From a virus: DNA of 64,000 nt. A program made the translations under genes and the position numbers. The DNA lies in IMG/VR virus record IMGVR_UViG_3300028800_000062, positions 64,001 through 128,000 of that record. One strand, written 5' to 3'. The notes below the pieces were generated by a model, which saw only the letters and a list, made by a program, of their open reading frames with translations, was not told where the DNA came from and did no database searches. This document shows positions 1,313 to 48,104 of the stretch, piece after piece. How positions within the stretch are numbered: position 1 is the first letter of the stretch; each line of letters begins with the position of its first letter.

Positions 1313-2722
1313 ATGAAGAACCTAGCCATACTGACCATGATCTTTGCAGGCGTCGCCTCCGCGCAATCTGCAGGCACCGCCTCCACGCAATGTCCTGCAG
1401 GCTCCAAACTGGTTGAGGTCCTGCGAGGCAGTTGGCAATGTACACCTCAGGCAAGCAGCGGAAAGAGCGCCAGCGCGCTTCCGGCAGCCCTTCCAACTTC
1501 TGTCATATTGGCTTCACGTACCAGCGCCACGGGATATGAACTCGCGGCCTGGGGAGATTCGTTGATTGCGGGCGGAGCTAATCAGACTGGATTGCAAGGA
1601 CCGCTGGCTACGCTACTGGGCCGGCCCGTCTATAACGGAGGCGTAGGGGGACAGACTTGTGCGCAGATCTCAGCCCGTATGCTGGCGGCAACAGACAAGA
1701 AGGGTCGCTTTGTTATTATATGGGCGGGCGTTAATGACTCCGGCAACAATTTCGCCACGGTGCCTGCTTGTATTGCCGGCATGGTTGCTTCCCTGGAGCA
1801 GCCTACCCGGTTCCTGGTAATCTCCCTGCTGCCGAACTCCGCCTGGGTCGGTACTTCCGCATTCACAGCCATGCAGGCCACAAATGCGGCTTTGAAGGCA
1901 GCCTATCCAAACAACTATTACGACGCGCTCGGGTACTTGCTCACGCAAGGCACCGGGACCGGACAGGACCAAATCGATGCGGCGGGTGGAATGACTCCGA
2001 CTTCGCTTCGCGCCGATGCCATCCATCCAACTACCGCGACCAATGTTCTATTGGCAAACCAGGTCGCCGCTTGGATTATAGCGCAGGATACACTGCAACT
2101 AGGCGCCGTACCGGTGTCCTCGATCAGCGACATCTTTGCCTCTCCGCCGGCACTGGGCGGAAATGTTCCACAGTCCGCCACACATACTCGCATGAACGTA
2201 CTCTCAGGTGGAACCTGGGACTACGGCACAGACCCCGCTACCGGCGGTACCGGGACCGGAATCGCGATCGGAACCAACATCGTCCCGGCGTATCACACAC
2301 TCACACTGGCGAGCAATTTGCTGGCTATGGGTGCCGGCGGCTTTACTCCGACAGACCCTATCGATATCCGGTCTTTCGGCGTGATCTCGATCGGTCAATC
2401 GAGCGGGTATGCCAACGTACTCAGCGCAGGACCCGGCAACACCATCCTAAAAGGCGCGGCCATCTACTTACAGGCTCCGGCCGGGACCAATATGCTTGGC
2501 ATCGGAACCGTCCGAGTATGCGTTGGACAGTCCTCGTGCTCAGTATCAGGCACAGGTCAGTTTGCCAACAAGGGAAACACGATTCGCTTTGCTGATGCGG
2601 CGCGCACGCCGGCCAGCAGTTCGGAAGCCTGCAATGCCGGCGAAGCATTCTTCGACGCCACATATTTGTACGTGTGCACGGCTACGAACACGATCAAACG
2701 CCTGACATTGACTGCTTTCTAA
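1313..2722 (+). CDS. SGNH/GDSL esterase-domain tail-associated protein with signal peptide
   Basis: SD AAGGAG; signal MKNLAILTMIFAGVASA|Q; SGNH blocks AWGDSL, GVGG, GVND, DAIHP; C-terminal PASSSEACNAGEAFFDATYLYVCTATNTIKR module common in phage fibres. Confidence 0.8.
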   Translation: MKNLAILTMIFAGVASAQSAGTASTQCPAGSKLVEVLRGSWQCTPQASSGKSASALPAALPTSVILASRTSATGYELAAWGDSLIAGGANQTGLQGPLATLLGRPVYNGGVGGQTCAQISARMLAATDKKGRFVIIWAGVNDSGNNFATVPACIAGMVASLEQPTRFLVISLLPNSAWVGTSAFTAMQATNAALKAAYPNNYYDALGYLLTQGTGTGQDQIDAAGGMTPTSLRADAIHPTTATNVLLANQVAAWIIAQDTLQLGAVPVSSISDIFASPPALGGNVPQSATHTRMNVLSGGTWDYGTDPATGGTGTGIAIGTNIVPAYHTLTLASNLLAMGAGGFTPTDPIDIRSFGVISIGQSSGYANVLSAGPGNTILKGAAIYLQAPAGTNMLGIGTVRVCVGQSSCSVSGTGQFANKGNTIRFADAARTPASSSEACNAGEAFFDATYLYVCTATNTIKRLTLTAF

Positions 2723-2728
2723 AGTGTA

Positions 2729-7906: not shown

Positions 7907-7919
7907 TGAGTTCACCATT

Positions 7920-13307: not shown

Positions 13308-13310
13308 TAG

Positions 13311-13329
13311 CTATACTAGCAATGGGTGA
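13311..13329 (+). promoter_or_regulatory. Candidate late-promoter motif CTATACTAnCAAnnGGTGA (copy 1)
   Basis: Intergenic; 16/19 identical to the sense-strand intergenic motif at 29671-29689; contains TATACT. Confidence 0.35.
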
Positions 13330-14455: not shown

Positions 14456-14998
14456 ATGATGCGTTTTCTATTAGTTGGAATCGTAGGTCTGCTGTTCGCT
14501 TTTAGCGTAATGGCGGCGCCGGCGCAGCCTCCGGCTGTAGTGGCTGTGTACGGTTATGATGCCAGCAACAATCTGCTCTACATCTGCCAGGCGTCGCAGC
14601 TAGGCACACCTGCGCTCACTTGGGCCATAGGCGGTCAGTTGAGCAGCCTGGCAGTTACTGCCAACGTGGCTACCGCCACTTTCTCTTCGGCGCCCGGCTT
14701 ATACCCTGGAGCTTTGTTGAACGTGGTGGGAGCCGGATCTCTGAACGGCTATTATCCCGTTAGTACCGTCAGTGGAAGCACGGTCACCTTTTCCACTCCA
14801 GCTGTGACATCTGGGACATACTCTTACGCCGGAGTGCAGATTGTCAGTTCCGCACCCCTGCTTACGGCACCCGTCTGGAGTATCCAGAAGTTCACGTGGT
14901 CTGCCACCGGACTACTGCAGACCAGTTATTGGGTGACGCTTCCTTTAAGCGATGGCATTTATGCCACCCAGCCCTGTACCAACGCGCTGTTGTATTGA
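14456..14998 (+). CDS. Exported beta-rich virion-region protein
   Basis: SD GAGGAG; signal MMRFLLVGIVGLLFAFSVMA; central segment resembles the small beta domain of phage tail/stabiliser proteins. Confidence 0.7.
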   Translation: MMRFLLVGIVGLLFAFSVMAAPAQPPAVVAVYGYDASNNLLYICQASQLGTPALTWAIGGQLSSLAVTANVATATFSSAPGLYPGALLNVVGAGSLNGYYPVSTVSGSTVTFSTPAVTSGTYSYAGVQIVSSAPLLTAPVWSIQKFTWSATGLLQTSYWVTLPLSDGIYATQPCTNALLY

Positions 14999-15007: not shown

Positions 15008-15772
15008 ATGCGAACAGTTCTTATCTTTCTAGCGGTATGTGGTGCAGCATTTGCGCAGTGCGGTCCGAACGGCAAAGCAATCCCTAATCCGTTCGGCTCT
15101 ACGCCGGCTCTCATCTGCACCGGTGTCAGTTCCACCGCGGGGAGCGGCAGTCCATTCGTCATGGGGACGGTCTACTCCGGAGCTGCTACTTTCGGCGCTT
15201 CCATTCCGGACGGTGTTTGTTCCACCACGTCCTATACGGCATCCGGCCTGGTGGCTGGCACGACTTTAGTCGGCAACTGGGCCAATGCGCCCGCGGGAAC
15301 CTTTGGAACGGTGTCCTCATCCACCAACACTGTCAATGTCAACCTGTGCAACTTGTCGGGCGGGAGTCTGACTCCGTCTTTTTCCATGAGCGTGGTGACA
15401 GCATCAAGTGCCAGCGGGGTGGTCACTCCTTCGCCCTATACCTCCGTAACAGACGCTTCTCCGGTGTCCTGGAATCTCGGCAGCGCCATCGTGACCAATG
15501 CATCGATTACCTTGAGTCACACCACCGGCACGCGCGCCCTCAATCTATCGAACGCGGTAGCAGGAGGCCTGTACACTCTGGTGGTTACAGAGGATGCCAC
15601 AGGCGGCGCCGCTTTAACCGGAGGCACCGGTTGCACCTGGGTTATTCAAGGTGGCACCGGGAACCACATCTTTCCCCTCACCACCACAGCGTCCGCCAAG
15701 AACCTGATCACGGTGAACTTCGACGGCACTAGTTGCTGGACAACGGTAAGGGCCGGCTTCACCGGAATGTAA
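15008..15772 (+). CDS. Exported short tail-fibre-like protein
   Basis: SD GAGG; signal MRTVLIFLAVCGAAFA|Q; shares a module with 16233..19370; C-terminus (YTLVVTEDATGG...LITVNFDGT) resembles fibre tip domains. Confidence 0.7.
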   Translation: MRTVLIFLAVCGAAFAQCGPNGKAIPNPFGSTPALICTGVSSTAGSGSPFVMGTVYSGAATFGASIPDGVCSTTSYTASGLVAGTTLVGNWANAPAGTFGTVSSSTNTVNVNLCNLSGGSLTPSFSMSVVTASSASGVVTPSPYTSVTDASPVSWNLGSAIVTNASITLSHTTGTRALNLSNAVAGGLYTLVVTEDATGGAALTGGTGCTWVIQGGTGNHIFPLTTTASAKNLITVNFDGTSCWTTVRAGFTGM

Positions 15773-15783: not shown

Positions 15784-16236
15784 ATGCTAGAAGACTTCGG
15801 TTGGACCTCACGCGGCGGTTTGATGCTGGACGGCTCAGGCGATATTGCCATGACCGCGGTTGATGGCGCAGATAGTCTGATTTCCATGGTGCGCACCCGG
15901 GTCAAGGCGGAATTACGCGCCTGGAAGCTGTATACCATCGGAGCCGATCTGCAGAACCGGGTGGGTGATCTGATGGGACCGGAACTGGAGATTGCCATCC
16001 AGCGCCAGGTAACGCGCGCTCTCACCGCGGATAATCTATTGCCTGCCGGCTCATTCCAGGTACAGACCCTACCGGACCTCAACCGGATGTATGTGCTGGT
16101 ATATATCGGACAGACTCTGATTACCAGCGTGACTTTGAGTCAGCCGCAAACGTCCCCATCCACAACTTCCATGGCGGTCAACACGCCGATTCCCGGCAGC
16201 GCTATTCCAGGCGTCGCCATCCCAGGACTCTCATGA
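15784..16236 (+). CDS. Baseplate wedge / sheath-initiator protein (gp25/gp46-like)
   Basis: GGLMLDGSGDIA...RVKAELRAWKLYTIGADL...QVTRAL pattern and ~150-aa size typical of this family. Confidence 0.65.
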   Translation: MLEDFGWTSRGGLMLDGSGDIAMTAVDGADSLISMVRTRVKAELRAWKLYTIGADLQNRVGDLMGPELEIAIQRQVTRALTADNLLPAGSFQVQTLPDLNRMYVLVYIGQTLITSVTLSQPQTSPSTTSMAVNTPIPGSAIPGVAIPGLS

Positions 16237-19200
16237 AACGATTCTTCGGTCTTCTTATCCTGTGTGCCGCCGGACTGCATGGACAGCCTAAATATCCAGC
16301 CGCTGTGGTTTCCGGCGTGGACTTGCCCACTCTCACCAATAATGTGCAGACCTACCTGACGTCCGCGGCGAGTTCGACGGATACCACACTACAGGTGCTG
16401 TCAACCGCTGCGTTTAACCTTCCGGCCGACGGGTCCCTGGTAGTGAACTCGGATAACGAGTTCATTCATGTCTGCAGTAAAACTACGACTACTCTCACAG
16501 TATGCATAGGCGGACGCGGTTATGACAACAGTGCCGCTACCGCGCATGTGGCGTACCGCGTGGTGAAGGAAATCATCGTAGCCCGATCCATCAACCAGCT
16601 GAATTCTGAGGTGACGTCAATCGAGACTGCCCTGGGGCCGAATCTGTCCAATGTCCAGGGGTTATTTCAGACGTGGCTCGCTTTGAATGGTGGAAGTGGT
16701 GGCGGTGCTTTCGTCCAGACCAATTCTGACTGGAACGCATCTACAGGCGTAGCACAGATCCTGAATAAGCCGACCATTCCCTCCAATACCTCGCAGATCA
16801 CCGAGAGCGGCAACCTGTATTTCACCAATGCCCGCGTCCTGGCGGCCATGTCCGGTCTATATCAATCACCGATCAACGGCGCGCCTGGCACCTGGCCCAG
16901 CCTCGCCTCCGTGGCAACATCGGGCAGTTACAATGACCTGGCCAATAAGCCCACGCTGTCCTCGCTCGGGGGTCTCACTAATCCTATGACCACGGCGGGT
17001 GATTTCCTGGTTGGAGGGGCCAGCGGCGCTCCACTTCGAGTAGCAGTTCCCGGTAACGGCACCTGGTGCCCGAACTGGTCTTCTGGGACCGTCACCTGGA
17101 TTACCTGTCCCGGCGCCGGCGGATCCGGAATTACATCCATTTCAATGACGGTTCCTTCCGGGTTCTCCGTAGCCGGCTCACCTCTCACGGCCAACGGCAC
17201 TCTGGCCATTACCTTGGCCAGCCAGACAGCAAAGTACGTACTGATTGCACCGTCCAGCAATGGAGTACCGACCTGGAGAGCGCTCACAGCCGGGGACATT
17301 CCCGCTTTAGCCTATCAGGCAACAATTACAGGAGCACCGGGCACCTGGCCTAGTTTTGCAGCAGTGGCCACGTCAGGAAGCTACACAGACCTGTCGAACA
17401 AGCCGACTATTCCAGCTTCCCAGATCAACTCCGATTGGAATGCCAGTTCCGGCCTGGCCCAGATCCTGAACAAACCAACCATTCCCGCGGCACAGGTCAA
17501 CTCCGACTGGAACGCTGCCTCAGGGCTGGCCCAGATTCTGAATAAGCCGAGCATGTACACGACGATTTATAGCACAGGGTTGTCCATGCCCCAGCGGACG
17601 TCCATCAACCTGATCGCGGGTACTAATATGACGGTGGGCTGTGTGGATAACTCCGGAGCCGCCCGTACGGATTGCACGTTCTCTTCAAGTGGAGGGGGCG
17701 GCACAGGCGGGTCTTCCGGAACCTATACAGGCACTGTCACCTTCGGAACGATTCCGGATGGTGACTGCGCTATCTCTACCTATTCCGCTGGCGGTATGGC
17801 GGCCGGTTCCAGCTTGACTGCGAACTGGGCCAACGCGCCTTCGGGAACGATCGGACAGGCCTGGGGCGATACCAACCTGATCTACGTGGATCTCTGTAAC
17901 TTCTCCGGGGCGGCCATCACTCCGGCATTCTCCCTGACCGCGTCTGTAGGCGGAGGCTCCGGCAGCGGCGCTGGTATGTCATCCCAACTGGGCGACCTGG
18001 CTACCGTCCGTAGTACCGGTTCCGTGTTGACTATAGGCGCCAGCTGCACTTCCAGCGTGCCTTGCAACGTACGCTTCGGAACCACCAGTTATTCGATCAC
18101 CACACAGGCTACGGTCACTTTGGGCGGCAGCACGTTAGGAACAGTCTTCATCTACCTCACCCCTAGTGGAACGCTTACGGCGGGGAGCTCGGGTCCGAGC
18201 CTGACCTGCTCTTCCGGCTGCCTGGTGGCCACTGGGGTTACAGGTTTCCCGACCAGTGCGTTGCCGATTGCCTCCTGGACTACTTCGGCGCCAGGCGTAT
18301 GGGATACGGCCGGCGGCGCAGACTTCCGGGCCTTCCTGAGCGTTGCCCCCAGTCTGGCGAACAACGCTGGTATTACACTCACCGGCAGCAGTTCCGGTTA
18401 CACGATTGGCACCGATAATTCGATCGTTCCTTTCAAGTATTCGGGCATCGCCGCACCTGGAACAGTGACCGGCAACTTATCGGGTGACTTTTATAATGAC
18501 ACGGTCAACCACAACCTGTATGTCTGTAATGCAGCATTCGGCACGTCCGCGCCGGCCTGCACTTCCGTAACAGCCGGACAATGGATGCTGGTCAATGGGT
18601 CAGGCGGTAGCAGCTACACGTTCCGCAACAATCTTGTGAATACCTCGGGCACGGTGGACTTCACGCCGGTGGATGCCAGCGTCATGGATGCCATGGATGA
18701 TTTCCTACCTTCGAAGAACAGTAATGGCGCGATAGGAACTCTGCATTGGGGGGTGTCCACATTAGGTACCTCTTGCGGCAGTAACATGGTGGCCAGCCAG
18801 TCTAATCATCCGGGTATCTTCCAGATCGTGAGCGGCAGCACTCCAGGTGATGGCTGTTCTTTAACCCTGTCGGACAACACCGAAGGTGCTCTTTATCCTT
18901 TCATCAACTTCGGGTCCGCCGCCGGACTGTCCTGGGAAATCCAGGCCATAGTGCAGACTGACGTCAGTGGAGTAGGGAACGCGAAGTACTTGGTGGGTTT
19001 CAGTGATAGCCAATCAACCTACCACCCGGCCAGCGGTAATGACATTGCAATTCGGTATGACCATTCCGGCGGAGGGTGCGTTTCGAATGAAAGCACCACC
19101 ACTTGGGTTTACGAAGTTAGTGTTGGCGGAACTAAGACGTGCGTGAATAGCGGTGTTGCGATTGCTTCGAACACCTGGTATCACCTGCGCATATACTCCA

Positions 19201-19370
19201 CCGCGCCAGGCACTATTCAGTTTCAGATCAACGGAGCGAACGCTGGCAGCATTGCAACGGCTCCCACGGCTAACATGGCGCCCCAGTTCCTCACCACGAG
19301 TACAGGCGGCTCTCAGGAGTCATTGTTTGTGGACTGGTGGGCCATGAAGATTCAAGGGTTGACTCGATGA
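16233..19370 (+). CDS. Long tail-fibre-like protein with signal peptide
   Basis: Signal MKRFFGLLILCAAGLHG|Q; fibre repeats VATSGSYxDLxNKP and DWNAxxGxAQILNKP; lectin-like C-terminus (NTWYHLRI..IQFQING). Confidence 0.75.
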   Translation: MKRFFGLLILCAAGLHGQPKYPAAVVSGVDLPTLTNNVQTYLTSAASSTDTTLQVLSTAAFNLPADGSLVVNSDNEFIHVCSKTTTTLTVCIGGRGYDNSAATAHVAYRVVKEIIVARSINQLNSEVTSIETALGPNLSNVQGLFQTWLALNGGSGGGAFVQTNSDWNASTGVAQILNKPTIPSNTSQITESGNLYFTNARVLAAMSGLYQSPINGAPGTWPSLASVATSGSYNDLANKPTLSSLGGLTNPMTTAGDFLVGGASGAPLRVAVPGNGTWCPNWSSGTVTWITCPGAGGSGITSISMTVPSGFSVAGSPLTANGTLAITLASQTAKYVLIAPSSNGVPTWRALTAGDIPALAYQATITGAPGTWPSFAAVATSGSYTDLSNKPTIPASQINSDWNASSGLAQILNKPTIPAAQVNSDWNAASGLAQILNKPSMYTTIYSTGLSMPQRTSINLIAGTNMTVGCVDNSGAARTDCTFSSSGGGGTGGSSGTYTGTVTFGTIPDGDCAISTYSAGGMAAGSSLTANWANAPSGTIGQAWGDTNLIYVDLCNFSGAAITPAFSLTASVGGGSGSGAGMSSQLGDLATVRSTGSVLTIGASCTSSVPCNVRFGTTSYSITTQATVTLGGSTLGTVFIYLTPSGTLTAGSSGPSLTCSSGCLVATGVTGFPTSALPIASWTTSAPGVWDTAGGADFRAFLSVAPSLANNAGITLTGSSSGYTIGTDNSIVPFKYSGIAAPGTVTGNLSGDFYNDTVNHNLYVCNAAFGTSAPACTSVTAGQWMLVNGSGGSSYTFRNNLVNTSGTVDFTPVDASVMDAMDDFLPSKNSNGAIGTLHWGVSTLGTSCGSNMVASQSNHPGIFQIVSGSTPGDGCSLTLSDNTEGALYPFINFGSAAGLSWEIQAIVQTDVSGVGNAKYLVGFSDSQSTYHPASGNDIAIRYDHSGGGCVSNESTTTWVYEVSVGGTKTCVNSGVAIASNTWYHLRIYSTAPGTIQFQINGANAGSIATAPTANMAPQFLTTSTGGSQESLFVDWWAMKIQGLTR
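16717..17550 (+). repeat. Intragenic fibre-shaft repeats (3x DWNAxxGxAQILNKP, 2x GAPGTWPSxAxVATSGSYxDLxNKP)
   Basis: Visible in the translation; the same units recur at ~23703-23997 in the 567-aa protein. Confidence 0.85.
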
Positions 19371-22300
19371 AGATTCTCGTCCTACTCACGATTTGTGCTT
19401 GTTCCGGGTGGGCTGCCATCACCGGTTTTCAGGTGCAGGGTACCACGTCCACCCAGGTTCTGGTCTCTTATAAAGCGCCGGATGCCAATGCGTGCACGAT
19501 TCAAGTTAGTCAGAGCGCGAGTCTGACGCCGCTGGCACTCGATGTGGACCCTGCCACGTTTGCGAATTCCAATCTCGATCTGAGCCGGCCTAGCACCGTG
19601 ACTAGTGGAATGTCCAGAACGTTGCTGATCGGCCAACGCACGGTGCAATATGCGACCGCTGGGACATACTCAGGTGTCCGGCACTTTTCCCGCGCACTCC
19701 AGGCTTATACGCCTTACTTCGGAATGATTACCTGTCCCTCCACCGGGGATACGTACAACTTCACGTTTTCCACCGGCAACATTCCGCTGGGCATGTCCTA
19801 CGGGGATCCGTTACCGGCCGATCCCGCCGATCCGGGAAATCAACCCTGGCCGGAGGCGGTGGGAGGCTTGTCCCCGGAATCCTTCATCGACCCTTTTACC
19901 GGAACCTATCTCACGCGCCTGGGCCTGCGTTCGAATAACTTCGGGTATTGGGGCAGCTTTCCATTCGGATCAGCCTTTAATCAGGGTCAGTTTCCATGCG
20001 ACAGCGCGGGGCCGTGGACCAACCCCTGCGGCACGATCGTGACCGGAGGCGCCGGCAGCGTGACCGTACTCAATAGCCAGGCGCCCCTCATCATCCGGCC
20101 GCCGCTCGCCGGAGGCAATGCCTTCAATGGAGGGTATGGGTCCAACAATTACGGCAGCATGTGGACACTCGATCAGTTTGCGGTTTCTCTGACCGGGCTG
20201 GGCAGCTCGACCACTTCCGCATTCCGTGTCCTGGATGTCTGTCTGTCACTTAACGGCGGCGCTTCCTGCGCCAACTCCGCACAGCAGATCACCATGGGCC
20301 AGACCAGCAGCGTGCAGAAGGCCGGCCAGTACAACACCACGCAGTATGGAGTCATTCCCTGGTTGCTTGATACCAAGCCCAGACTGAACGTACAGGAGGC
20401 CTCGCCACACTCAGGAGCGGCTACCGTGAGCGGGAATACCGTCACCTGGGTTTCCGGCAACCTGTTCAGTCTTTATTGGGTGACGGGCGGTAATGGCACG
20501 GTCCGGCTATCGACTGTCTCAAGCAGCGACGCCTGCGCCACACCTCCCAATACCACCAGTTCGACGGAATACACCATCCTGGGTATGCCCGATGGAAATC
20601 ACCTGACGGTGTCCGGAACTCCTCCCGCGGGCAGTGTGTACTGGTGTGCTGACAATTTCGCTGTCATGGTGTGGCGCGATCAGGCGCCCTCCGACGGAAG
20701 CAGTATCACGCTCACGGCCGCTTCCATGGCCGCCATCGAGAGCACTTCTCCCACTTATCCGGATAACGGCGCGGACCACGCCTGCTTCAACAAGCTGGTG
20801 CAGGGTGGATACTTCTGCCTCTATGGCGGCCTTTACTGGATCAATCCTCAGACAGGTGCCTCTGCCTACTACGGTTACATGACGGCCCCGTCCAACAACC
20901 AGAGCGGGCAGGCGATCACTAATCCGTGGCATACCATAGGCATCATCCCAGCCAGTGAGTCAGCCAACATCGATCAATCGCAGAATGTCCTGACGTTTTA
21001 CACTACCGCGATCGATCCGACGAGTGCCACCGCACTGGTGATTCAAGGGGTATTCAATCCCACGACGATCGCAACTCCGGCGGCGCCTTACGTCAACGGG
21101 AGTCAGATTGGCAGCGCCAATGTGATCGGAAGCACGGCCTATTCCGTCACCTACAACAACGGTCTGACCTTTTCCAATCTCACGCCGCAGGTCAGTTTGA
21201 ATCAAGGAATTGTGGCTCAGATGGCCACACTCGACCCGACCTTCAAGGTCTCCCAGATAGGGTCGCCGTGGAATTGTCAAGCCTACGGGTTCTCAGGATC
21301 CCTCTTCTATTTAGGATGCTACACGAGTTATGAAGATGGTCCTGGTTGGATTCTGGCCTTCTCTCCAGGGGACGGCAATCCAGCGCATGCCGGCCAAGCC
21401 GGAGGGCCTCAGATTGTAGGGGCGATCAGCACTTTCAACACGCCCAGCAATGCGCCGGTTACCCCCGGGTATGTGGGGATGTACGGCCATGGCCTGCACG
21501 CTGTGGTGGAAGCCGACAGTGGCTGGGTGCAGGTCAACACGCACTTCCTGCAGCCGATCAACACCAGCAACAACACGTTGCCGGCAACCGGGGTGGATTG
21601 CTCTACCTACGGCCTGGCCAGCGGAAAGCAATGCACACTGCTGAACATCAACAGTTATACGCATGCTTCGGTGACCAGCTATGAGCCTTATTATGCATCG
21701 CCTTCCACTCCATTCACCGGAGCTCCCGGGGAAACCCGCACAGCACAGATCGGGGATACTGCCTGCGTGGCAGTCAGTACGTCGGGGAGCTGCAGCTATA
21801 CCAGCTCTCAGGAATTGCTGACGCTGGTAGCGAAGAACTATCAGGGAGTGCAGGGCGCCTGGGTCTTTCAGCGCAACGGCTACGGTGTAGAGAAGGCGAT
21901 CGCTACTGGGCCTATCACCCTCTGGTGGGCCGCGATCGCTGCGAACATGCCTCCCGGCAGCGCTGCGGCAGGATCTTTCAGTGTCTACTGGAACCCGGTG
22001 ACGGGTTGCGCCGGCTCGCCCGATCCGCACGGCAATTGTATGACGACCGATACCAATGAGACGGCCGGACACGGAGAATGGCGCAATGGCGGTGAAGCGG
22101 TGACTACCAACGTGCCGGACTGGTCGGTACCCATTATGGGTTGGGGCAGTGTATATCAAACCACTCTGGGAAATGTGCCCGGCATCCTCAGCTTGAACCC
22201 GACCAACGTGACACCTGATGTGACTCCCGGCATAAACTACGTGAACGACGAGCCTCCCTTTGCTGGAGTGTATGGTCATCCTTTCGGCTTCGACGCCGGC

Positions 22301-23329
22301 AGTCACCCGAATGCGCCGGGAAACCTGGCTCCAGCCAACGAGCAGATCCGCGCATTCGACAACGTCCCTCTACAGGGCGGCCAGAATGAACCGACCTGGG
22401 TGAGTATTTCCGGGCAACTCTATACCGCGGCGCCGGCATCCAATCTGGACGCTGACGATCCTTTTGGTTACGGATCCATTATAGCCATGAACCGTAAATT
22501 GTATGCCCAGGGAGCCAGCTGTGGACCCCATCCGCTGACGGATATAAGCGGACCGGCATCGAGTATTTCGACCTCTACTGCCAGCTCCTACACTTATTGC
22601 TTCGCGCGCACCGCGGGCGAATGTTATTCCGGTAGTTCGGTGGGTCAAGTCTATGTGAACTGCCCGGGAGTGACAGCAGTTACCTGTCAAGGTTCTGGGA
22701 TTCACGGCGGGGCGCCCTTCGGGGCCGGTGCGGATATTTGCCTGGGCAATATCAACAATACGGCCAATGCGGTCCGTCAGTTCACATTGGACCGGACGGA
22801 CATGGCCGGATTGCGCAGCCGCACCGTGGTTGCCGCCACGGCGCGCACCCGCATGGTGTACGGGTTCGAGAACAATGAGTTAGTGCCGGACAACTCCTGG
22901 CTGTTGTACCGCTCGGATTGGCTGGACTTTCAGCGCGCGGAGATGTGGGCGGCTAAGCTGCCGCCGTATCCGCCTGTCGATTCGGTGACGCGCAATACCT
23001 TCGTGCCTGTGACGGTCAGCCTGAGACCGGCTGCCGGCCTGCAGGTCAACAACGCCATCGTCGAGTTTGGGTATCAGGAATATGGGAATACGCTGCTCAA
23101 CTGTACTACGCGTAACGATATCTGCGTGTCCGCATCGAACGTCAGGATTTCCGGTACGCAACCGTTTTCCTTCATCTCTGAAAACCCGGCCGGGTTGGCC
23201 TGCGCCACCGGCTGCACTCTCGTGATTCCGGCCCTTTCGCAGAGAGTCCTGTATTACCGGGTCGTGTATCGTAGTCTAACTAACAGTGTGTTGTACACGG
23301 GTCCACTGACGTCAGTGGTGGTTCCGTAA
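19367..23329 (+). CDS. Large exported Cys-rich beta protein (putative adhesin/receptor-binding appendage)
   Basis: ATGA coupling to upstream gene; signal MKILVLLTICACSGWA; ~1320 aa, G/S/T/N/P-rich with many Cys. Confidence 0.7.
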   Translation: MKILVLLTICACSGWAAITGFQVQGTTSTQVLVSYKAPDANACTIQVSQSASLTPLALDVDPATFANSNLDLSRPSTVTSGMSRTLLIGQRTVQYATAGTYSGVRHFSRALQAYTPYFGMITCPSTGDTYNFTFSTGNIPLGMSYGDPLPADPADPGNQPWPEAVGGLSPESFIDPFTGTYLTRLGLRSNNFGYWGSFPFGSAFNQGQFPCDSAGPWTNPCGTIVTGGAGSVTVLNSQAPLIIRPPLAGGNAFNGGYGSNNYGSMWTLDQFAVSLTGLGSSTTSAFRVLDVCLSLNGGASCANSAQQITMGQTSSVQKAGQYNTTQYGVIPWLLDTKPRLNVQEASPHSGAATVSGNTVTWVSGNLFSLYWVTGGNGTVRLSTVSSSDACATPPNTTSSTEYTILGMPDGNHLTVSGTPPAGSVYWCADNFAVMVWRDQAPSDGSSITLTAASMAAIESTSPTYPDNGADHACFNKLVQGGYFCLYGGLYWINPQTGASAYYGYMTAPSNNQSGQAITNPWHTIGIIPASESANIDQSQNVLTFYTTAIDPTSATALVIQGVFNPTTIATPAAPYVNGSQIGSANVIGSTAYSVTYNNGLTFSNLTPQVSLNQGIVAQMATLDPTFKVSQIGSPWNCQAYGFSGSLFYLGCYTSYEDGPGWILAFSPGDGNPAHAGQAGGPQIVGAISTFNTPSNAPVTPGYVGMYGHGLHAVVEADSGWVQVNTHFLQPINTSNNTLPATGVDCSTYGLASGKQCTLLNINSYTHASVTSYEPYYASPSTPFTGAPGETRTAQIGDTACVAVSTSGSCSYTSSQELLTLVAKNYQGVQGAWVFQRNGYGVEKAIATGPITLWWAAIAANMPPGSAAAGSFSVYWNPVTGCAGSPDPHGNCMTTDTNETAGHGEWRNGGEAVTTNVPDWSVPIMGWGSVYQTTLGNVPGILSLNPTNVTPDVTPGINYVNDEPPFAGVYGHPFGFDAGSHPNAPGNLAPANEQIRAFDNVPLQGGQNEPTWVSISGQLYTAAPASNLDADDPFGYGSIIAMNRKLYAQGASCGPHPLTDISGPASSISTSTASSYTYCFARTAGECYSGSSVGQVYVNCPGVTAVTCQGSGIHGGAPFGAGADICLGNINNTANAVRQFTLDRTDMAGLRSRTVVAATARTRMVYGFENNELVPDNSWLLYRSDWLDFQRAEMWAAKLPPYPPVDSVTRNTFVPVTVSLRPAAGLQVNNAIVEFGYQEYGNTLLNCTTRNDICVSASNVRISGTQPFSFISENPAGLACATGCTLVIPALSQRVLYYRVVYRSLTNSVLYTGPLTSVVVP

Positions 23330-29689: not shown

Positions 29690-29696
29690 GTGCGGA

Positions 29697-32497: not shown

Positions 32498-32498
32498 G

Positions 32499-35196: not shown

Positions 35197-35201
35197 GATT
35201 C

Positions 35202-36758: not shown

Positions 36759-36765
36759 ATAGGTT

Positions 36766-41195: not shown

Positions 41196-41198
41196 GAC

Positions 41199-42118: not shown

Positions 42119-43611
42119 GCGGTCAACCTGATGGAATCGTATTGATCCGTGGTGTACACGGACCGTGAACCTGGATCGAAGATGTATGCGTCGTACTGGA
42201 AACGCACCGGCACCAGATAACTGCCGGTCCAGATCCAGGGGCGCTGCCGGGCATCAAAACCCAGACCGGCGATATCAGAAACTACTTCGCTTAGATCCAG
42301 CTGCACGGCCGAAAAGGCGAAGTTGCCGTAAACCTGCACGTCCTGAGTGATGAGGTTATTCAGATCGGAGCACTCCAGGGTGAACACGTAGGTTCCCGTC
42401 CACGGCAGTTGCAGGCTCATGTTGGGCAGTGGCCCTCCGATCCATCCGGAAGCACCATCCAAACTGGCCAGAGTACCGGAAGACGTCACTACGTAGCTCA
42501 TTCCATTCGGAGCATCTACCCGCAACCGGCACTGCCTCAGGTTGCCTGAGGTCTCGTGTGGAATGGCATGGATAGCCACCGCGGCAATCTGCCCCACATG
42601 GGTTTGATCGTAAGACAAGCTCAAACTGTACAGGGGCTCGGTGGTGATGACTGCCCGGCTCAACATGTCCGGCATCGGTTCCCGCCGGTCGGCGTAATAC
42701 AGGTTGGTGCCCGCGTAGAGGAACAAACCGTATGTGTTCGGTTCGACCGTCAGGCCAAGCATGTTGGATGGCAGCAGGCAGCTGTGCACAACCTCAAATC
42801 CGGACCAGCGGTTGATGGCGTAGACTTCCTGCAGGTGCAGGGAATCCAAAGTCCAATAACGCCGGAAGGTTACGTCCCGGTAGGCGGCCAGCGAGACCGG
42901 CCGCATATCGTCGGGCTGGTAGGGGCAACCAAATGGAAACAGCAGCACCTGAAGGGTGGCGCCGGACGGTAATCCGAAGACCTGAATATCATCGACGGAC
43001 TGCCAGGTCCCGCGCGTGCTGAACAATCCATTGTCATTGATCGAAACCGTTTCCGATTGCGATAGTAGGTCGGCCGCCCAGTAGTCACAAGGATAAGTCC
43101 GGCCTTTAAGGATTACCGTGATATTACTGCTGAAGTTTCCCAGGTCGGTGACCCAGAAATAGAGCTGATTGGGCAGAGGGAGGTCCAGAGATCCGCCATC
43201 CTGAGGATCGTCCGTGCCGCTGAAAGTAATCAGCACAGGGTCGCCGCAGGCTACCGTAGAGCGATCCGGGTCGGGCACTATGGCCGTGGGGACCGGAATC
43301 GTATCGTCGTAGGGTTGTAGGCTGACGTAAGTGCCGTTGCGGAGGCCTTCGACTTTAGTGGGCCCGGTTGCAGGCAGGCTCATAGGCACCGGAACCCTGT
43401 AGTAGATTCCGCGGCCGTCCAGATTGGCCGGGCAGGTGTCGAAGGACTGCGCGTCGATCTCCCGCTGCATGCGAGTTTCGCCTTCCTCGAGTGATATGGC
43501 CGCGGCATTGAGCAGTTGCCCGTCCAACGTGAACGGTAATTCTCTGCTGCGTGGGTCCAGGTGGTCGAAGTAATTGCGCAGTGCCTGCGTGCGGTGAGAA
43601 TGATGAATCAT
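42115..43611 (-). CDS. Putative baseplate structural protein
   Basis: 498-aa ORF downstream of baseplate J. Confidence 0.5.
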   Translation of the reverse strand: MIHHSHRTQALRNYFDHLDPRSRELPFTLDGQLLNAAAISLEEGETRMQREIDAQSFDTCPANLDGRGIYYRVPVPMSLPATGPTKVEGLRNGTYVSLQPYDDTIPVPTAIVPDPDRSTVACGDPVLITFSGTDDPQDGGSLDLPLPNQLYFWVTDLGNFSSNITVILKGRTYPCDYWAADLLSQSETVSINDNGLFSTRGTWQSVDDIQVFGLPSGATLQVLLFPFGCPYQPDDMRPVSLAAYRDVTFRRYWTLDSLHLQEVYAINRWSGFEVVHSCLLPSNMLGLTVEPNTYGLFLYAGTNLYYADRREPMPDMLSRAVITTEPLYSLSLSYDQTHVGQIAAVAIHAIPHETSGNLRQCRLRVDAPNGMSYVVTSSGTLASLDGASGWIGGPLPNMSLQLPWTGTYVFTLECSDLNNLITQDVQVYGNFAFSAVQLDLSEVVSDIAGLGFDARQRPWIWTGSYLVPVRFQYDAYIFDPGSRSVYTTDQYDSIRLTA

Positions 43612-44102
43612 CAGAATGTGCGCCCGATACCGAGTTCAAACTTGGAAGTCATGGAAGATCCACTCGAAACAGCCTTCACGCCGACTGTAAACATGGTCTG
43701 CTTCCGAGAATAGGCCAGCATGCCTCCGCCGGAGAATGTTCCTACCATGGACGGGCTGGTGGAACTGCCTCCATCGGCCAGGGCAATGAGTGAAAAGGGA
43801 CCGGATACAGCTACTACCATCGCTACGCCGGTGCGGACCTGGGATTGCTGTCCGGTCATTTCGATCGTGGTCATGGAGTAAAGTCCCCCCACACAGCCAT
43901 AGACCGGGTTTTCTGACGCAGTGCAGACCTGCACACCAAGCTTGATGCCGAAGGTAACCCATCCTACCGCCACCGGGGATCCGTAGGGAGTCACCCCGGC
44001 GCCCGCGAAGGCAAAGTAACTGGTCTGGGAAACCGGTGGAGTTACAGGAGTTTGCGCGAAGATCGGAAGCACGAACAGAAGAACGGCAAGTAGGCGTCTC
44101 AT
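43611..44102 (-). CDS. Putative small outer-membrane beta-barrel protein
   Basis: Signal MRRLLAVLLFVLPIFA|Q; amphipathic strands; C-terminal FELGIGRTF resembles a BAM beta-signal. Confidence 0.6.
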   Translation of the reverse strand: MRRLLAVLLFVLPIFAQTPVTPPVSQTSYFAFAGAGVTPYGSPVAVGWVTFGIKLGVQVCTASENPVYGCVGGLYSMTTIEMTGQQSQVRTGVAMVVAVSGPFSLIALADGGSSTSPSMVGTFSGGGMLAYSRKQTMFTVGVKAVSSGSSMTSKFELGIGRTF

Positions 44103-44114
44103 TAGAACCTTTCC

Positions 44115-45314: not shown

Positions 45315-45322
45315 AAGAGCGC

Positions 45323-45811
45323 CTATTGCCCCATGATGGGAATGATCTGCACGGAGGATCCGAGATCGGTGAATACCTGGGTTGAAATGATGCTGGCCCC
45401 GTTCAGCGTGTTCCAGGTGGGTGGCAACTGTGGGCAGCTGTTGGTCTGGCAATAGGTCTGTAGGGCAGGTACTCCAATCAATCGAATGGAAGCTTGCATC
45501 AGCAGATCCTGTATCGAGGAGAATTTGGCTTTAACCACGAAGGAGCCATCAGCTTGTTGTATCTTCCAAGTTTGCCCGGTAACGAATGACTGCAGGGCAC
45601 TAACTTGATAGTTTGGCAACGGCTGAATCACCACAATTGGAACCGGCGCCGGGGTTGGGGTGCGCATATCGAGTGTGATCATGGTGACGGTGCCTGGTTG
45701 AAATGTCTGGCAGGTCTGCGCCCCGGTGCCTAAAGACCAGCATACGTTCACTGGTTGTTGAGCCAGCATCGTGATTGCACCGGCCAAAAGTAAGAGAATG
45801 ACTTTCTTCAT
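45323..45811 (-). CDS. Exported protein downstream of tail fibre
   Basis: Start reassigned to MKKVILLLLAGAITMLA|QQ (SD GAGG); two Cys pairs. Confidence 0.65.
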   Translation of the reverse strand: MKKVILLLLAGAITMLAQQPVNVCWSLGTGAQTCQTFQPGTVTMITLDMRTPTPAPVPIVVIQPLPNYQVSALQSFVTGQTWKIQQADGSFVVKAKFSSIQDLLMQASIRLIGVPALQTYCQTNSCPQLPPTWNTLNGASIISTQVFTDLGSSVQIIPIMGQ

Positions 45812-45818
45812 CGTTGCC

Positions 45819-48104
45819 TCAGAACTGAGTAAGAGTGTGGAAACTATACACGCCGCTGGCGGACTTGCCGCAAACCTGCTCGTTATCGCCCAGCAGGTCG
45901 TCCTCGACGAAGAAATGCTGACCACGAGTGGTCTGGTTACACATTAGGGGCTGGGACACATCCACCGGCTGTACTGTTTGCACCGCTAGATTCTTTACAG
46001 CATTAACCAACACGTAAGTCAGCGCACCTGGGTTGAGATCGTAGAGCTGCGTAGGCTCCGCGTCGGTGGGATTCAACTTCGCCGAAAAGGTCCCAACGCT
46101 GTACGGGATTACGTTCATAGCATCCTGAGCCAGCAATCCGATGCCGGTCATGCCGGCGGTCAAACCAGCCAGGCCGTTGTATTCAAACGCCACCGGATTC
46201 AAAGCATTGATAGTACTGAGGCCGTCAAGAAAAGGTCGGATATTGGTCTTCAGCCGGGCATCTGAATATACGGTCCAGGTAGCGGTAGCGGCTTTGGATG
46301 CTGAGTCGGTAGATAGTTCCAACTGATGGGTGGGGTTGGTGACACCGATTCCGATGTTGCCACTTGAATTGATAAAGAGGCGCGTACCGCCGGCGGTGGC
46401 CAGGGCGATTGAAGCGTTTGCATCGCCATTATTGATAGTAAAATCCCCGGTTGCGTGCTTTAGAATGTCCACGATGGCGATGCCGGTCCCTGCCGAGTTT
46501 TCCGTAATCATACGCAGATCGAAGCCACTCGCGGCAGGTGCGGTATTGGAATTGTATAAGTCTAGGTAACCTAAGGAAGCGTTGGAGCTGAGGAACCTTC
46601 CTACGCTGGAATTGGAACCTTCCGCTTGAAAGATGTAAGTAGGATTTGTGACCCCGATGCCTAGACTTCCACCGGCTGTCCATCGACCGTACTCCGTGAA
46701 CGTTTGCGTAGAACCGTTAAATTTGCCGAATGCAATGTTCCCACCAGCAGCCCCGGCGTAGATTTGCAGCGTACTCGCCGCGATTCCCAGTCCGTATGAA
46801 TCGACTCCGCCTGAATCGTAGACGTACAACTTATTCGATGCAACGGATGACCCGAGAGACAACAGTGCACTTGGAGCAGTTGTTCCGACGCCTACATTCC
46901 CTCCGGTATAATCCGCGGTCGATCCATTCAGAGTCCACAGTCCCACATTGTTCGGGATGCCGCTCAGACGCGCCCAAGGTACTGTACCTGAAGACAGCGT
47001 GCCAACAGCTGTAATGAAACTACTCCCGGCCCAGGTAGAGAGCGCTGTGTTCTGCACGTTGCCAAGGCCCACTTTGTTGGCGCTGATGTTTAGCCAGGGG
47101 GGATCGCTGTAGGAACCGTTGGTGTAAACCCCATTGGTCACCGTACTCGCGTTCGTAGCCGTGGTGGCGTTGCCTGAGATGTTGATGGAATAGGTCCCGC
47201 TGGTGATCTTCGTCGCATAGTTCCCGGCGGCCAGAGCTGCGATCGGAATGCTCGCCGCGGTCAGGCCCGCTCCGGACCCGTTGAATTGACCGGTGATCGT
47301 TGCGTTACCCGCCACCTGTAAGGTATCGATCCCATTATCGGTGGCAGTTCCAGCCAACACCCGACCGGTATAAGACAGAGCCCCGCTCAGGACGGTCCAG
47401 GGGTTGGCCGCGTTGGTCACGGTGGATATAGAAGTCACGCGGCCAGCAGCATCGATGGTAAGGACTGGGATGGCAGAGGTACTGCCGTAGGTACCTACCG
47501 CGGCGCCGGAGGCCGGCAGCTGCGACACGCTGATGGAAGGGGAGCACCAGAATGGAGGACCGGCTACTGAACCATTTCCCTGAGAACACAACGTATGGAT
47601 CGTGGTTGAATTCAGACCGTGCAGGATCGAAAGAGCATTATCACCCGATCCGTAGATCAGATCGCCGACGGCGTAGTGGGAATTGCCTATATCCATGAAT
47701 GCGGTGGGGTCGTTGGCCAGCGGAATCGCGGTAGAGAGGTTCCAGGTAGGACCTGCGATCATATAATTCTGCGTATAGACCAGCTGGCTACCCGCGTAAA
47801 TATTCACCTGATAGTAGGTCTGTCCAAGTACGGTGCCGCAGGAGATGATGTCGTTGCCCACCAGGGTTCCGCGCAGGATGCCGGCCGGGTTGGGGACCAT
47901 GGTCGCCGTAGCCGGCACGATGATGGAGGAGCCTATAACCAGGGGGATATTGCCGCCGCAGTTCTCCAGGGTGAATTGCACGGTGCGATTGGAGCTCATC
48001 GGCTGCCCGGTGAGATTCACGATGTTGCCGCTGATCACCGTGGCCGGAAGGGAACGAAGCAGGAGCAATAGGCCGGCGGCCAAACGTAAATAACGCAAGG
48101 TCAA
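45819..48104 (-). CDS. Tail fibre with C-terminal intramolecular chaperone (peptidase S74) and N-terminal signal peptide
   Basis: GNVGVGTTAP/GNIGIGVTNP repeats; YSDARLKTNI..LNPVAFEY..GLLAQD S74 motif; N-terminus MTLRYLRLAAGLLLLLRSLPA. Confidence 0.85.
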   Translation of the reverse strand: MTLRYLRLAAGLLLLLRSLPATVISGNIVNLTGQPMSSNRTVQFTLENCGGNIPLVIGSSIIVPATATMVPNPAGILRGTLVGNDIISCGTVLGQTYYQVNIYAGSQLVYTQNYMIAGPTWNLSTAIPLANDPTAFMDIGNSHYAVGDLIYGSGDNALSILHGLNSTTIHTLCSQGNGSVAGPPFWCSPSISVSQLPASGAAVGTYGSTSAIPVLTIDAAGRVTSISTVTNAANPWTVLSGALSYTGRVLAGTATDNGIDTLQVAGNATITGQFNGSGAGLTAASIPIAALAAGNYATKITSGTYSINISGNATTATNASTVTNGVYTNGSYSDPPWLNISANKVGLGNVQNTALSTWAGSSFITAVGTLSSGTVPWARLSGIPNNVGLWTLNGSTADYTGGNVGVGTTAPSALLSLGSSVASNKLYVYDSGGVDSYGLGIAASTLQIYAGAAGGNIAFGKFNGSTQTFTEYGRWTAGGSLGIGVTNPTYIFQAEGSNSSVGRFLSSNASLGYLDLYNSNTAPAASGFDLRMITENSAGTGIAIVDILKHATGDFTINNGDANASIALATAGGTRLFINSSGNIGIGVTNPTHQLELSTDSASKAATATWTVYSDARLKTNIRPFLDGLSTINALNPVAFEYNGLAGLTAGMTGIGLLAQDAMNVIPYSVGTFSAKLNPTDAEPTQLYDLNPGALTYVLVNAVKNLAVQTVQPVDVSQPLMCNQTTRGQHFFVEDDLLGDNEQVCGKSASGVYSFHTLTQF

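Follow-up and report, generated by a model that had tools for sequence, protein, structure and literature searches.

Predicted Sec-exported proteins encoded among the late structural genes of an acidobacterial soil phage include some with relatives in cellular polysaccharide loci

A soil phage with a contractile tail, belonging to a conserved lineage whose host group is the Bryobacterales (Acidobacteriota), encodes 14 proteins with Sec-type signal peptides that account for ~18% of the coding capacity of its 146.7-kb record. The central pair, SP1045 and SP1320, has its closest relatives in host polysaccharide loci, and we regard it as the likeliest reading, held with about even confidence, that the proteins are host-derived, Sec-exported envelope- or EPS-processing factors made late in infection. 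The initial annotation of the 64,000-nucleotide stretch analysed here (the window) listed ten ORFs whose products start with a basic n-region and a hydrophobic core ahead of an AxA/xxG-like cleavage site. Direct reading bears this out for all ten and enlarges the set, four further signal-bearing proteins (1182, 664, 184 and 981 amino acids) being encoded upstream. The description of the set as tail-fibre or appendage proteins throughout does not hold, as the set is mixed: it comprises an SGNH esterase, a pectate-lyase-like beta-helix relative, what may be a TIM-barrel glycosidase, a 163-aa protein resembling an OMP, a 1320-aa protein with beta-propeller and CBM-like features, several proteins with fibre repeats and a single S74 fibre. 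The GC content of the genes (0.56–0.59) is that of the remaining genome.

By direct reading and a simple heuristic, all 14 proteins show the features expected of Sec/signal peptidase I substrates, namely an n-region with positive charge, 8–16 uncharged hydrophobic residues as the core, and small residues at both −3 and −1. On the plus strand the leaders are MKNLAILTMIFAGVASA (ORF starting at 1313), MMRFLLVGIVGLLFAFSVMA (14456), MRTVLIFLAVCGAAFA (15008), MKRFFGLLILCAAGLHG (16233), MKILVLLTICACSGWA (19367), MITKRLIAFVLLAGGLFG (23346) and MRRLLWLVLLVAPVFA (25046), with Ala after the cleavage site in ORFs 14456 and 19367 and Gln in the other five. On the minus strand, MRRLLAVLLFVLPIFA (44102) and MKKVILLLLAGAITMLA (45811) are each followed by Gln, whilst the leader of SP761 (48104), which ends in RYLRLAAGLLLLLRSLPA and is followed by Thr, is the weakest of the signals. 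Gln occupies position +1 after Ala or Gly in 11 of the 14 signals, the same habit as is found in the host. When applied to internal-Met pseudo-N-termini as a control, the heuristic flagged 0.1–0.6%; among proteins of at least 450 amino acids it flagged 9 of 32 here versus 0 of 60 in two complete relatives (G002 and G003), and SP-like proteins make up 19% of residues here versus 0.9% and 2.1%, respectively, in those genomes.

The possibility that true starts lie downstream of the hydrophobic segments was raised by the initial annotation itself. Twelve of the 14 leaders are preceded by a start with a Shine–Dalgarno (SD)-like motif 3–11 nt upstream (SP1182 and SP543 lack one), and SP184 is the only protein with a downstream SD-bearing alternative past the hydrophobic core. 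For SP761, the TTG at 48098, with AAGGAG 7 nt upstream, is a more probable start than 48104. Among near-full-length SP1320 homologues, whose modal Cys count is 28, the leader varies whilst the mature N-terminus AIGNFRVLGTTATQ is conserved in at least 81 of 99, and orthologues of SP163, SP761 and SP1045 likewise keep the leader as a property and not as a sequence. The number of cysteines is even in 12 of the 14 mature proteins (binomial p ~0.006), mostly in close pairs, and is zero in core virion proteins (those of 1725, 1653 and 815 amino acids, the MCP and the portal). Because the signals are host-style, the cysteines paired and even in number, the leaders variable ahead of conserved mature N-termini and the SD-bearing starts placed ahead of the leaders, the prediction that all 14 are exported as substrates of host Sec and signal peptidase I is well supported. 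As the initial annotation stated, core genes have no such N-termini; this applies to the SLT giant, Baseplate_J, the 498-, 284- and 815-aa proteins and the DUF4815-like 661-aa protein.

The proposed translational coupling to, and interleaving with, baseplate genes is also evident. Four-nucleotide ATGA overlaps occur at 16233/16236, 19367/19370, 25046/25049 and 48101/48104, and the remaining gaps are 5–16 nt. A candidate late promoter motif, TATACTAGCAA (TATACTARCAA), is present in nine copies in the genome, every one in the coding direction. The copy at 13312..13322 (+) heads an operon that runs from 13330 through the gene starting there, SP180, SP254, a 124-aa-like baseplate gene, SP1045, SP1320, SP567 and SP543 to an 81-aa gene, and that at 48668..48678 (−) heads one comprising a 145-aa gene, SP761, SP162, Baseplate_J, SP163, the 498-aa gene and onwards. 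The baseplate gene in the first of these (15784..16236, +) has no signal, is homologous to the 124-aa gene preceding Baseplate_J in relatives (46–50% identity to relatives G2 and G3) and overlaps the SP1045 start with its stop (ATGA). Applying the moron test, we found no promoter or terminator belonging to the signal-bearing genes themselves, which sit inside operons headed by the shared motif.

This phage and its two complete relatives, G002 (214 kb) and G003 (205 kb, with terminal repeats), are colinear across the core genes of head, tail and baseplate. Both relatives retain all core genes, and neither has a homologue of any of the 14. The presence of signal-bearing genes thus varies between otherwise colinear relatives; in another relative, L005, SP proteins likewise lie within the baseplate module. 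The 14 proteins therefore appear, from gene content, to be lineage-specific additions outside the conserved virion. Fibre-like candidates that are free of signals are retained here, namely an 881-aa protein with tail-fibre PHROG matches and conserved distal baseplate proteins, and the fibre repeats of the signal-bearing set also occur in signal-less fibres of isolated phages.

SP1045 (16233..19370, +; 18 Cys in the mature protein) is a four-part mosaic of signal, conserved N-domain (residues 1–141), phage-type fibre repeats (~160–540) and a C-terminal domain common to cellular SP846/849 proteins. A conserved N-domain of ~120 amino acids after the signal is shared with SP207 of L005 and SP634 of L066, and 28 of the 150 best relatives of the SP1045 repeat (~19%) have signals. 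Its partner SP1320 (19367..23329, +; 28 Cys when mature) consists of a signal and a Cys-rich, all-beta multidomain body, a family with no Pfam domain. The SP1320 model (pLDDT 83) is similar to a propeller of the oligogalacturonate-lyase type carrying a CBM-like domain, the structural matches being middling (beta-propeller, Z 9.5; CBM-like sandwich, Z 8–9.4; Fn3, Z 7.8).

The closest relatives of the pair, 55–65% identical, are encoded by cellular Bryobacteraceae, in polysaccharide loci that also specify Wzy, Wzx and glycosyltransferases. P0316 (55%) is flanked by Wzy_C and UDP-glucose dehydrogenase in a cluster that includes Wzx, glycosyltransferases and heparinase II/III; P0322 (56%) neighbours Wzy_C, FkbH and Asn synthase; and P0274 (65%) adjoins Wzx and GT4 behind an 849-aa Pect-lyase_RHGA_epim protein (31.3 bits, cut-off 27) that is homologous to SP981. 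The SP1320 family and its upstream partner lie inside Wzx/Wzy-type clusters in L069, L067/L068, L090 and L083, and at four other chromosomal sites of the family BLAST detected no polysaccharide-cluster neighbours. In all, 44 of 151 Bryobacteraceae genomes have the SP1320 family, several on Mb-sized contigs, and none of the 151 has the phage MCP (capsid) gene. In the tree, phage copies nest at two separate places within cellular diversity. The coupled cassette is also present in L066, a phage of unrelated backbone whose portal and MCP are its own, and in other IMG/VR contigs. SP1045 and SP1320 form a mobile two-gene cassette, and at least this core of the set was probably acquired from, or is shared with, host cell-envelope polysaccharide loci. 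Occurrence in such loci and in an unrelated backbone suggests an autonomous exported function rather than docking on this baseplate.

The other members are diverse. The C-terminal 432 amino acids of SP981 are encoded at 1..1299 (+), the gene starting outside the window at genome position 62354; its signal, MYKTFLLMIFTTISVFA, is followed after cleavage by QCPAG, it has 18 Cys, and residues 76–479 are 37–47% identical to cellular SP846, which carries a pectate-lyase-like beta-helix. SP469 (1313..2722, +; 8 Cys) has AAGGAG 9 nt upstream of its start and an SGNH/GDSL esterase domain (Pfam Lipase_GDSL_2, 39.5 bits against a cut-off of 32.9), across which PHROG tail-fibre families also match. SP543 (25046..26677, +; 16 Cys) has no Pfam match and no homologues by word search; structural comparison (ESM Atlas features score 0.90, structure TM 0.57/0.73) provides a lead, and only a lead, that it may be a clan GH-A TIM-barrel glycosidase. 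SP180 (14456..14998, +; 2 Cys) has a beta-rich 160-aa body with a weak match to a PHROG ‘virion structural protein’ family (E 0.008), and SP254 (15008..15772, +; 6 Cys when mature) has a Ser/Thr/Gly-rich body and a 68-aa module in common with SP1045.

As originally noted, several members have fibre repeats, with 81-aa units that are 66–73% identical between SP1182 and SP1045. SP567 (23346..25049, +; 12 Cys) shares repeats with both but has no PHROG match of its own. PHROG tail-fibre families match SP1182, SP1045 and SP761, in addition to SP469, and no such match was obtained for SP1320, SP543, SP664, SP981, SP254, SP163, SP162 or SP184. SP761 (45819..48098, −) begins with a short signal and an N-domain, continues as a fibre body and ends in a Peptidase_S74 chaperone (PF13884, 42.7 bits against a cut-off of 22); it is the only one of the 14 to score above the Pfam cut-off for that domain. 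SP162 (45323..45811, −), directly upstream of Baseplate_J, has four Cys in two pairs after its signal. Between Baseplate_J and the 498-aa baseplate gene lies SP163 (43611..44102, −), which has no Pfam match and a beta-rich body ending in GIGRTF that is modelled, poorly (pLDDT 47), as long beta hairpins; it has a signal-bearing orthologue in L003 (57% identity) and two chromosomal homologues.

The derivation of the central pair from host polysaccharide clusters makes work at the envelope more likely than a role as exported fibres fitted to the virus. We infer that the signal-bearing genes would be transcribed together with the late structural operons, and that their products would pass through host Sec and signal peptidase I, fold oxidatively outside the cytoplasm and build up late in infection in the periplasm or at the cell surface. 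At the envelope they may bind, de-esterify or cut host EPS, capsule or O-antigen-type polysaccharide, which could release progeny from the matrix, prevent re-adsorption to the dying cell and its debris, and block superinfection. The SGNH esterase, the beta-helix relative, the GH-A-like lead and the propeller-like model of SP1320 all support this. Against it, SP1182, SP1045, SP567 and SP761 have the architecture of receptor-binding fibres, the genes lie within baseplate operons, to which they are translationally coupled, and are not independent morons, and access to surface EPS before lysis would require periplasmic proteins to cross the outer membrane. In addition, the SP1320 family alone is common in hosts (SP981, SP761, SP543, SP469 and SP163 are each found in 1–2 of the 151 genomes), the structural matches of SP1320 are middling and the SP543 glycosidase assignment is a lead.

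A clearly less probable alternative is surface display, in which the exported fibre-like proteins, along with the OMP-like SP163, would coat the envelope of a carrier cell that is lysogenic or slowly infected, in the manner of MAT fibres or lysogenic conversion, and alter adhesion, aggregation or phage susceptibility without degrading polysaccharide. SP761 and SP1045 have the same layout as MAT fibres, a fraction of SP1045-repeat relatives bear signals (see above), and SP163 resembles a small OMP positioned as lambda Lom is; furthermore, ParA is encoded in the record, and its close relatives either have been classed as proviruses or are found within large MAG contigs. Placement in late structural operons behind the shared motif argues the other way, however, as do the enzyme-like members, which fit display less well, and the failure to find an outer-membrane anchor or secretion partner.

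The initial annotation had offered action at the carrier-cell surface as its second reading, and this lies closer to the evidence for envelope processing; its first, a split assembly pathway, we think unlikely. Here, some or all of the fibre-like SP proteins would be virion receptor-binding appendages that, once exported, acquire disulfides and trimerise in the periplasm, docking only at lysis onto particles built in the cytoplasm. It would account for the fibre-like architecture with its S74 chaperone, the tight coupling within late operons and the baseplate-module location in L005, and fibres in acid soil would gain stability from disulfides. SP761 also has the conserved N-domain (65% identical in the nearest relative, L003) and variable C-terminus typical of virion fibres, a pattern repeated in an ERZ1426815 contig, and this too counts against the envelope reading. 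However, the conserved virion of the complete relatives needs none of the 14, the signal-less fibre-like candidates remain available, several members are enzymes or OMP-like, and attachment after lysis would compete with dilution. The SP1045/SP1320 cassette, N-termini included, travels as a unit across unrelated phage backbones and the polysaccharide loci of cells, and so cannot depend on a lineage-specific docking site. Nor could an adaptor domain of any known type for docking on the baseplate be recognised. More doubtful again is the specific proposal that SP761, SP1045, SP1182 and SP567 are real host-range determinants, folded in the periplasm and joined to particles only at lysis with the enzyme members as partners; if true, virions would be assembled by a two-compartment route, so far undescribed among tailed phages. 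Finally, that the hydrophobic N-termini are annotation artefacts, uncleaved membrane tethers or assembly tags is highly improbable: the SP761 leader is short and followed by Arg and the SP1182 and SP543 starts lack an SD, but false-positive rates are low, relatives are clean, the leaders follow SD starts and ATGA coupling, the property is conserved over ~100 homologues and recurs on cellular ones, and Cys pairing goes with it.

Several known systems share features with this set. PslG, AlgL, AlgG, AlgX/AlgJ and BcsZ are signal-bearing proteins of glycosidase, lyase, beta-helix or SGNH fold encoded in polysaccharide clusters of the Wzx/Wzy or synthase-dependent type; SP1320, SP1045 and SP981 have cellular relatives in such clusters too, but these belong by sequence to none of those families. 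Lambda Lom and Bor, T5 Llp and the O-antigen-converting prophage genes specify signal-bearing phage envelope proteins, variably present and often in or near the tail-fibre region, and classical morons carry a promoter and terminator of their own, with expression in the lysogenic state. SP163 appears Lom-like in position and modelled build, and variable presence among relatives is moron-like; unlike classical morons, the genes overlap and couple with late baseplate genes. The S74 chaperone and tail-fibre matches of SP761 recall virion fibres and tailspikes such as K1F endosialidase and T5 pb1, which end in the same chaperone, but to our knowledge known virion fibres have no signal peptide. Signal absence on phage DGR target proteins has been used as an argument for phage origin (PMC6199706).

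The initial statement that no system of this kind has been described was too strong. [quoted passage not shown] 2023, PMC10367356). Both cases involve phage-encoded signals that copy the host +1 Gln habit, but here there are 14 proteins of up to 1320 amino acids, within the late structural operons of an Acidobacteriota phage, and fibre-like or CAZyme-like proteins, paired cysteines and host polysaccharide loci are not discussed in that study. The mosaic adhesive trimer (MAT) fibres of Bdellovibrio bacteriovorus are cellular, Sec-exported homologues of phage tail fibres, with a signal, a conserved beta-rich N-domain of ~130 amino acids, a fibre and, in 13 of 21, an S74 chaperone (Caulton et al. 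2024, PMC10769870). The same arrangement is seen in SP761 and SP1045, the comparison being one of architecture only (PDB sequence searches with both gave no matches), whereas MATs are chromosomal predator adhesins and not phage genes. Lastly, a survey of soil viral and prophage CAZymes found SignalP signals on 5% of prophage CAZymes, left out tail-fibre- and baseplate-associated genes by design and treated the enzymes as metabolic helpers (PMC13507307). The candidate enzymes described here would likewise be phage-borne, glycan-active and from soil but, unlike those, form one predicted exported set together with fibre-like proteins.

The initial annotation had credited ten ORFs between window positions 1313 and 48104 with signal-like starts, and each of the ten opens with a short basic n-region that leads into an uncharged hydrophobic core and then small residues at -3/-1. 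A rule-based scan of the whole record identified four further large signal-bearing proteins upstream (1182, 664, 184 and 981 aa), giving a set of 14, each designated SP with its length in residues, that sums to 8475 residues; a few small membrane-type proteins were also flagged. The scan is a simple heuristic rather than a trained predictor, and in control runs it flagged 0.1–0.6% of internal-Met pseudo-N-termini. Among proteins of at least 450 aa, it flagged nine of 32 in the record versus none of 60 in two complete relatives. SD-like motifs lie 3–11 nt ahead of the start in 12 of the 14 genes, and four of the starts overlap the preceding stop as ATGA. The SP761 start is probably two codons later than called, at the TTG at 48098, with the leader still downstream of it. 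From inspection of starts and SD motifs we rejected the possibility that the true starts lie beyond the hydrophobic cores, SP184 alone having an SD-preceded start past its core. Reading of the sequences likewise led us to reject Tat signals (despite leaders that open MRR or MKR, the n-regions lack sufficient length and the S/T-R-R-x-F-L-K motif is absent), lipoprotein signals (there is no consistent lipobox, and a Cys close to the site of SP1320 cleavage is not found throughout the family) and PEP-CTERM or T9SS sorting tags (none at the C-termini of the set). Neither a phage-encoded signal peptidase (PF10502) nor DsbA (PF01323) was found in the 68%-complete record.

The 146,742-bp sequence, a single IMG/VR virus record whose completeness was estimated by CheckV, is that of a contractile-tail phage, and the window covers its bases 64001–128000. 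The structural genes include those for sheath, tube, capsid and portal upstream, an SLT-bearing giant of 1795 aa (7920–13307), Baseplate_J (44115–45317, minus strand) and a 661-aa DUF4815-like protein. Baseplate_J has hundreds of metagenomic relatives at 52–89% identity, although an IMG/VR scan with this protein alone gave no matches and a 32-sequence alignment was needed as query. Relatives in GTDB genomes come almost exclusively from MAGs of Bryobacteraceae, Bryobacterales, Solibacteraceae and Terriglobia, and because they are so confined we assign the host to the Acidobacteriota, most likely to the order Bryobacterales. No close relative was found among isolated phages. A ParA/CbiA-type ATPase is encoded at 54035–54763 (plus strand), and in the close relative L003 it lies next to a RepO-like gene. 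Some relatives are classed as proviruses by IMG/VR; persistence as a prophage, integrated or plasmid-like, is possible. A 239-aa protein (27108–27827, minus strand) with a single N-terminal transmembrane helix, adjoining conserved 196-aa and 152-aa genes, has no family match and is possibly an i-spanin-like lysis protein.

Predicted cleavage would expose Gln, following A or G, in 11 of the 14 proteins. In 400 kb of a Bryobacteraceae chromosome (L096–L115), Gln stands at the heuristic site in nine of 39 signal-like N-termini and about seven more have AQ slightly downstream, against a background of 3.9% Gln in the sampled ORF products of that chromosome. Since the +1 Gln habit is common to both, the phage leaders mimic host style, and on these sequences there looks to be a Q-rule-like habit in Acidobacteriota; the Q-rule has been described as Bacteroidetes-specific (PMC5837995, PMC10653852). 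Twelve of the 14 mature proteins also have an even number of Cys residues (p about 0.006), and the Cys are mostly paired at a spacing of 10–25 residues, the pattern that oxidative folding in an extracytoplasmic compartment would predict. The conserved virion proteins contain almost no Cys, with none in an 815-aa protein, the capsid or the portal. Among the clade-conserved giants (window 2729–13307 and genome 57375–62336, in whole-record coordinates), the 1653- and 1725-aa proteins have none and the 1795-aa SLT-bearing protein has 11. Taken together, export and oxidative folding of the set are very probable.

The description of these proteins as a whole set of tail-fibre or appendage proteins does not hold. 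Fibre modules are common to SP1182, SP1045, SP567, SP254 and SP761, the last with a Peptidase_S74 chaperone at its C-terminus, but the set also includes an SGNH/GDSL esterase scoring over the Pfam cut-off (SP469), a homologue of a cellular protein bearing a pectate-lyase-like beta-helix (SP981) and others. In the ESM Atlas, SP543 has a likeness to TIM-barrel glycosidases of clan GH-A; word-based search found no homologues, and because none of its three weak relatives in host genomes carries a Pfam domain, the glycosidase call remains only a lead. SP163 is beta-rich and ends in GIGRTF, as in outer-membrane barrels, its single-sequence model being too poor (pLDDT 47) for fold search. The SP1320 model is all-beta and confident (pLDDT 83, pTM 0.81). 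Its best structural match (VIA) is an oligogalacturonate-lyase-type propeller (Z 9.5, 323 residues aligned, rmsd 3.5), followed by carbohydrate-binding-module sandwiches (Z 8–9.4) and Fn3 (Z 7.8), middling values that indicate fold and not function. Foldseek with this model gave low-TM multidomain matches only, the ESM Atlas held no usable match for SP1320, and PDB sequence searches with SP1320, SP567, SP543, SP1045 and SP761 gave none. The record also retains a signal-less fibre-like protein of 881 aa.

Two complete relatives, fetched whole (G002, 214 kb; G003, 205 kb with terminal repeats), are colinear with the record through the head, sheath, tube, three giants, Baseplate_J and, after it, the distal baseplate genes. 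Neither has a homologue of any of the 14 proteins, and their SP-like share of residues is 0.9% and 2.1%, respectively, all in small proteins. Conservation of the signals, which the initial annotation had proposed to survey, is seen in the nearest relatives: L003 (Baseplate_J 89% identical) retains leaders on its orthologues of SP761 and SP163. L005 (59%) has five other SP proteins within its baseplate module, one with the SP1045 N-domain, and a 204-kb contig (77%) has a matching layout of 124-aa gene, SP868, 1406-aa gene and 81-aa gene. In most other relatives, the 10 kb on either side of Baseplate_J contains no SP gene. As these and the complete relatives lack them, the SP genes are additions in one sub-lineage, outside the conserved particle.

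Several features of gene order can be set beside this. The block from Baseplate_J to the 196- and 239-aa genes (window 27108–45317) is inverted relative to G002 and G003, while the 124-aa-like gene (15784–16236) and the 81-aa gene (26690–26935) keep their orientation; SP gene clusters occupy both junctions. A Vsr/DUF559-like endonuclease (phrog_13076; 28410–28868, minus strand) lies past the distal baseplate genes, where the tail/baseplate block ends, and is conserved in the same place in both complete relatives. In G003, three small signal- or TM-like genes (56222–57834; L056–L057) lie between two conserved head-proximal genes, a slot filled in the studied phage by SP1182 and SP664; the position looks like a hot spot for cargo aimed at the envelope.

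The central result concerns SP1045 and SP1320, which form a translationally coupled cassette found in three settings: the phage lineage, an unrelated phage and cellular Bryobacteraceae loci. The unrelated phage contig (L066) has its own portal and capsid and no further gene detectably in common with the studied phage, yet its cassette conserves both leaders and the N-domain, with SP1320 47% identical over its full length. Of the cellular homologues, P0316 (55%) is flanked by a Wzy_C protein and a UDP-glucose dehydrogenase in a cluster with Wzx, several glycosyltransferases, heparinase II/III, a sulfotransferase and an epimerase. P0274, at 65% one of the nearest relatives known, is encoded behind an 849-aa pectate-lyase-like protein, with Wzx and GT4 nearby. 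P0322 (56%) comes after two SP proteins with homology to SP1045, SP981 and SP1182 and adjoins Wzy_C, FkbH and Asn synthase.

Near-full-length members of the SP1320 family number about 100 and differ very little in length; in at least 81 of 99, a variable hydrophobic leader precedes a conserved mature start (AIGNFRVLGTTATQ), and the modal Cys count is 28. Of 151 sampled Bryobacteraceae genomes, 44 encode the family, several of them on Mb-sized contigs (the tally includes unpublished genomes G089 and G114, used in no other result), and the capsid protein of the studied phage occurs in none of the 151; the other SP proteins are scarcer, in one or two of 151 each. Cellular loci (L067, L069, L072, L073, L081–L085 and L090) encode signal-bearing proteins of about 1280–1400 aa with about 28–33 Cys. 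No Pfam domain was found in the cellular members; a signal-bearing pectate-lyase-like protein is often encoded upstream, and polysaccharide loci are frequent. In a midpoint-rooted FastTree of 48 members, with genomic context known for some tips only, the deep branches are chromosomal and phage copies fall at two separate points among cellular ones, the lineage of the studied phage (support 91) and L066 with the L067 copy (support 99). Other IMG/VR contigs also carry the family along with SP partners. The cellular members define a large, uncharacterised and Cys-rich family of about 1330 aa, apparently exported, within the polysaccharide loci of Bryobacteraceae.

A candidate late promoter without a -35 element, TATACTARCAA, occurs in nine copies, every one in the coding direction: window 13312, 29688 (minus) and 48678 (minus), and genome 17291, 21827, 22923, 30434, 48661 and 61563. 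Six lie 14–140 nt 5' of the next called start, the rest inside or far ahead of called ORFs. Those at 13312 (plus) and 48678 (minus) head the two operons that hold most SP genes together with baseplate genes, which probably places SP expression late, alongside that of the tail, and sets the genes apart from classical morons.

Three features point towards proteins that act on envelope polysaccharide autonomously and outside the cytoplasm: the set is mixed and rich in enzymes, it is absent from the conserved virion, and a whole cassette has been exchanged both with host polysaccharide loci and with an unrelated phage. The proteins would form a secreted, host-derived tool-kit aimed at the cell's polysaccharide coat and expressed alongside the tail genes. 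Plausible benefits are that progeny are freed from EPS, that they are spared re-adsorption or that other phages are kept out; as a package, we give this proposal an even chance. MAT-like display at the cell surface, akin to the decoration that the initial annotation had offered as an alternative, would also employ exported fibre modules but is unlikely. Split assembly, in which exported fibres are later fitted to particles, is most plausible for SP761, with its S74 domain, conserved N-domain and variable C-terminus, but given the set's absence from the conserved virion we consider it distinctly improbable.

If the autonomous role is correct, nearly a fifth of a soil phage's coding capacity is a host-derived secreted polysaccharide tool-kit, joining tailspike depolymerases, prophage surface conversion and the 'auxiliary' CAZyme genes of soil viruses, usually handled separately, and fibre-like annotation in uncultured phages may mask exported non-virion proteins. 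Acidobacteriota EPS is a major soil carbon pool, and such masking would bear on how its turnover during infection is understood, on host-range prediction and on viral CAZyme counts. An assembly route in which exported fibres are fitted to particles afterwards would alter the textbook view of how tailed phages are built.

Parallels exist for parts of this arrangement. Bdellovibrio has exported cellular tail-fibre homologues with S74 domains (PMC10769870), and Porphyromonas phages have been reported to encode proteins with host-type signals, interpreted as surface modifiers (PMC10367356). About 5% of prophage CAZymes bear signals (PMC13507307). For the target proteins of phage DGRs the absence of a signal has been used as support for phage origin (PMC6199706). 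What is new here is the direct link to host polysaccharide loci, together with the contrast to complete, signal-free relatives.
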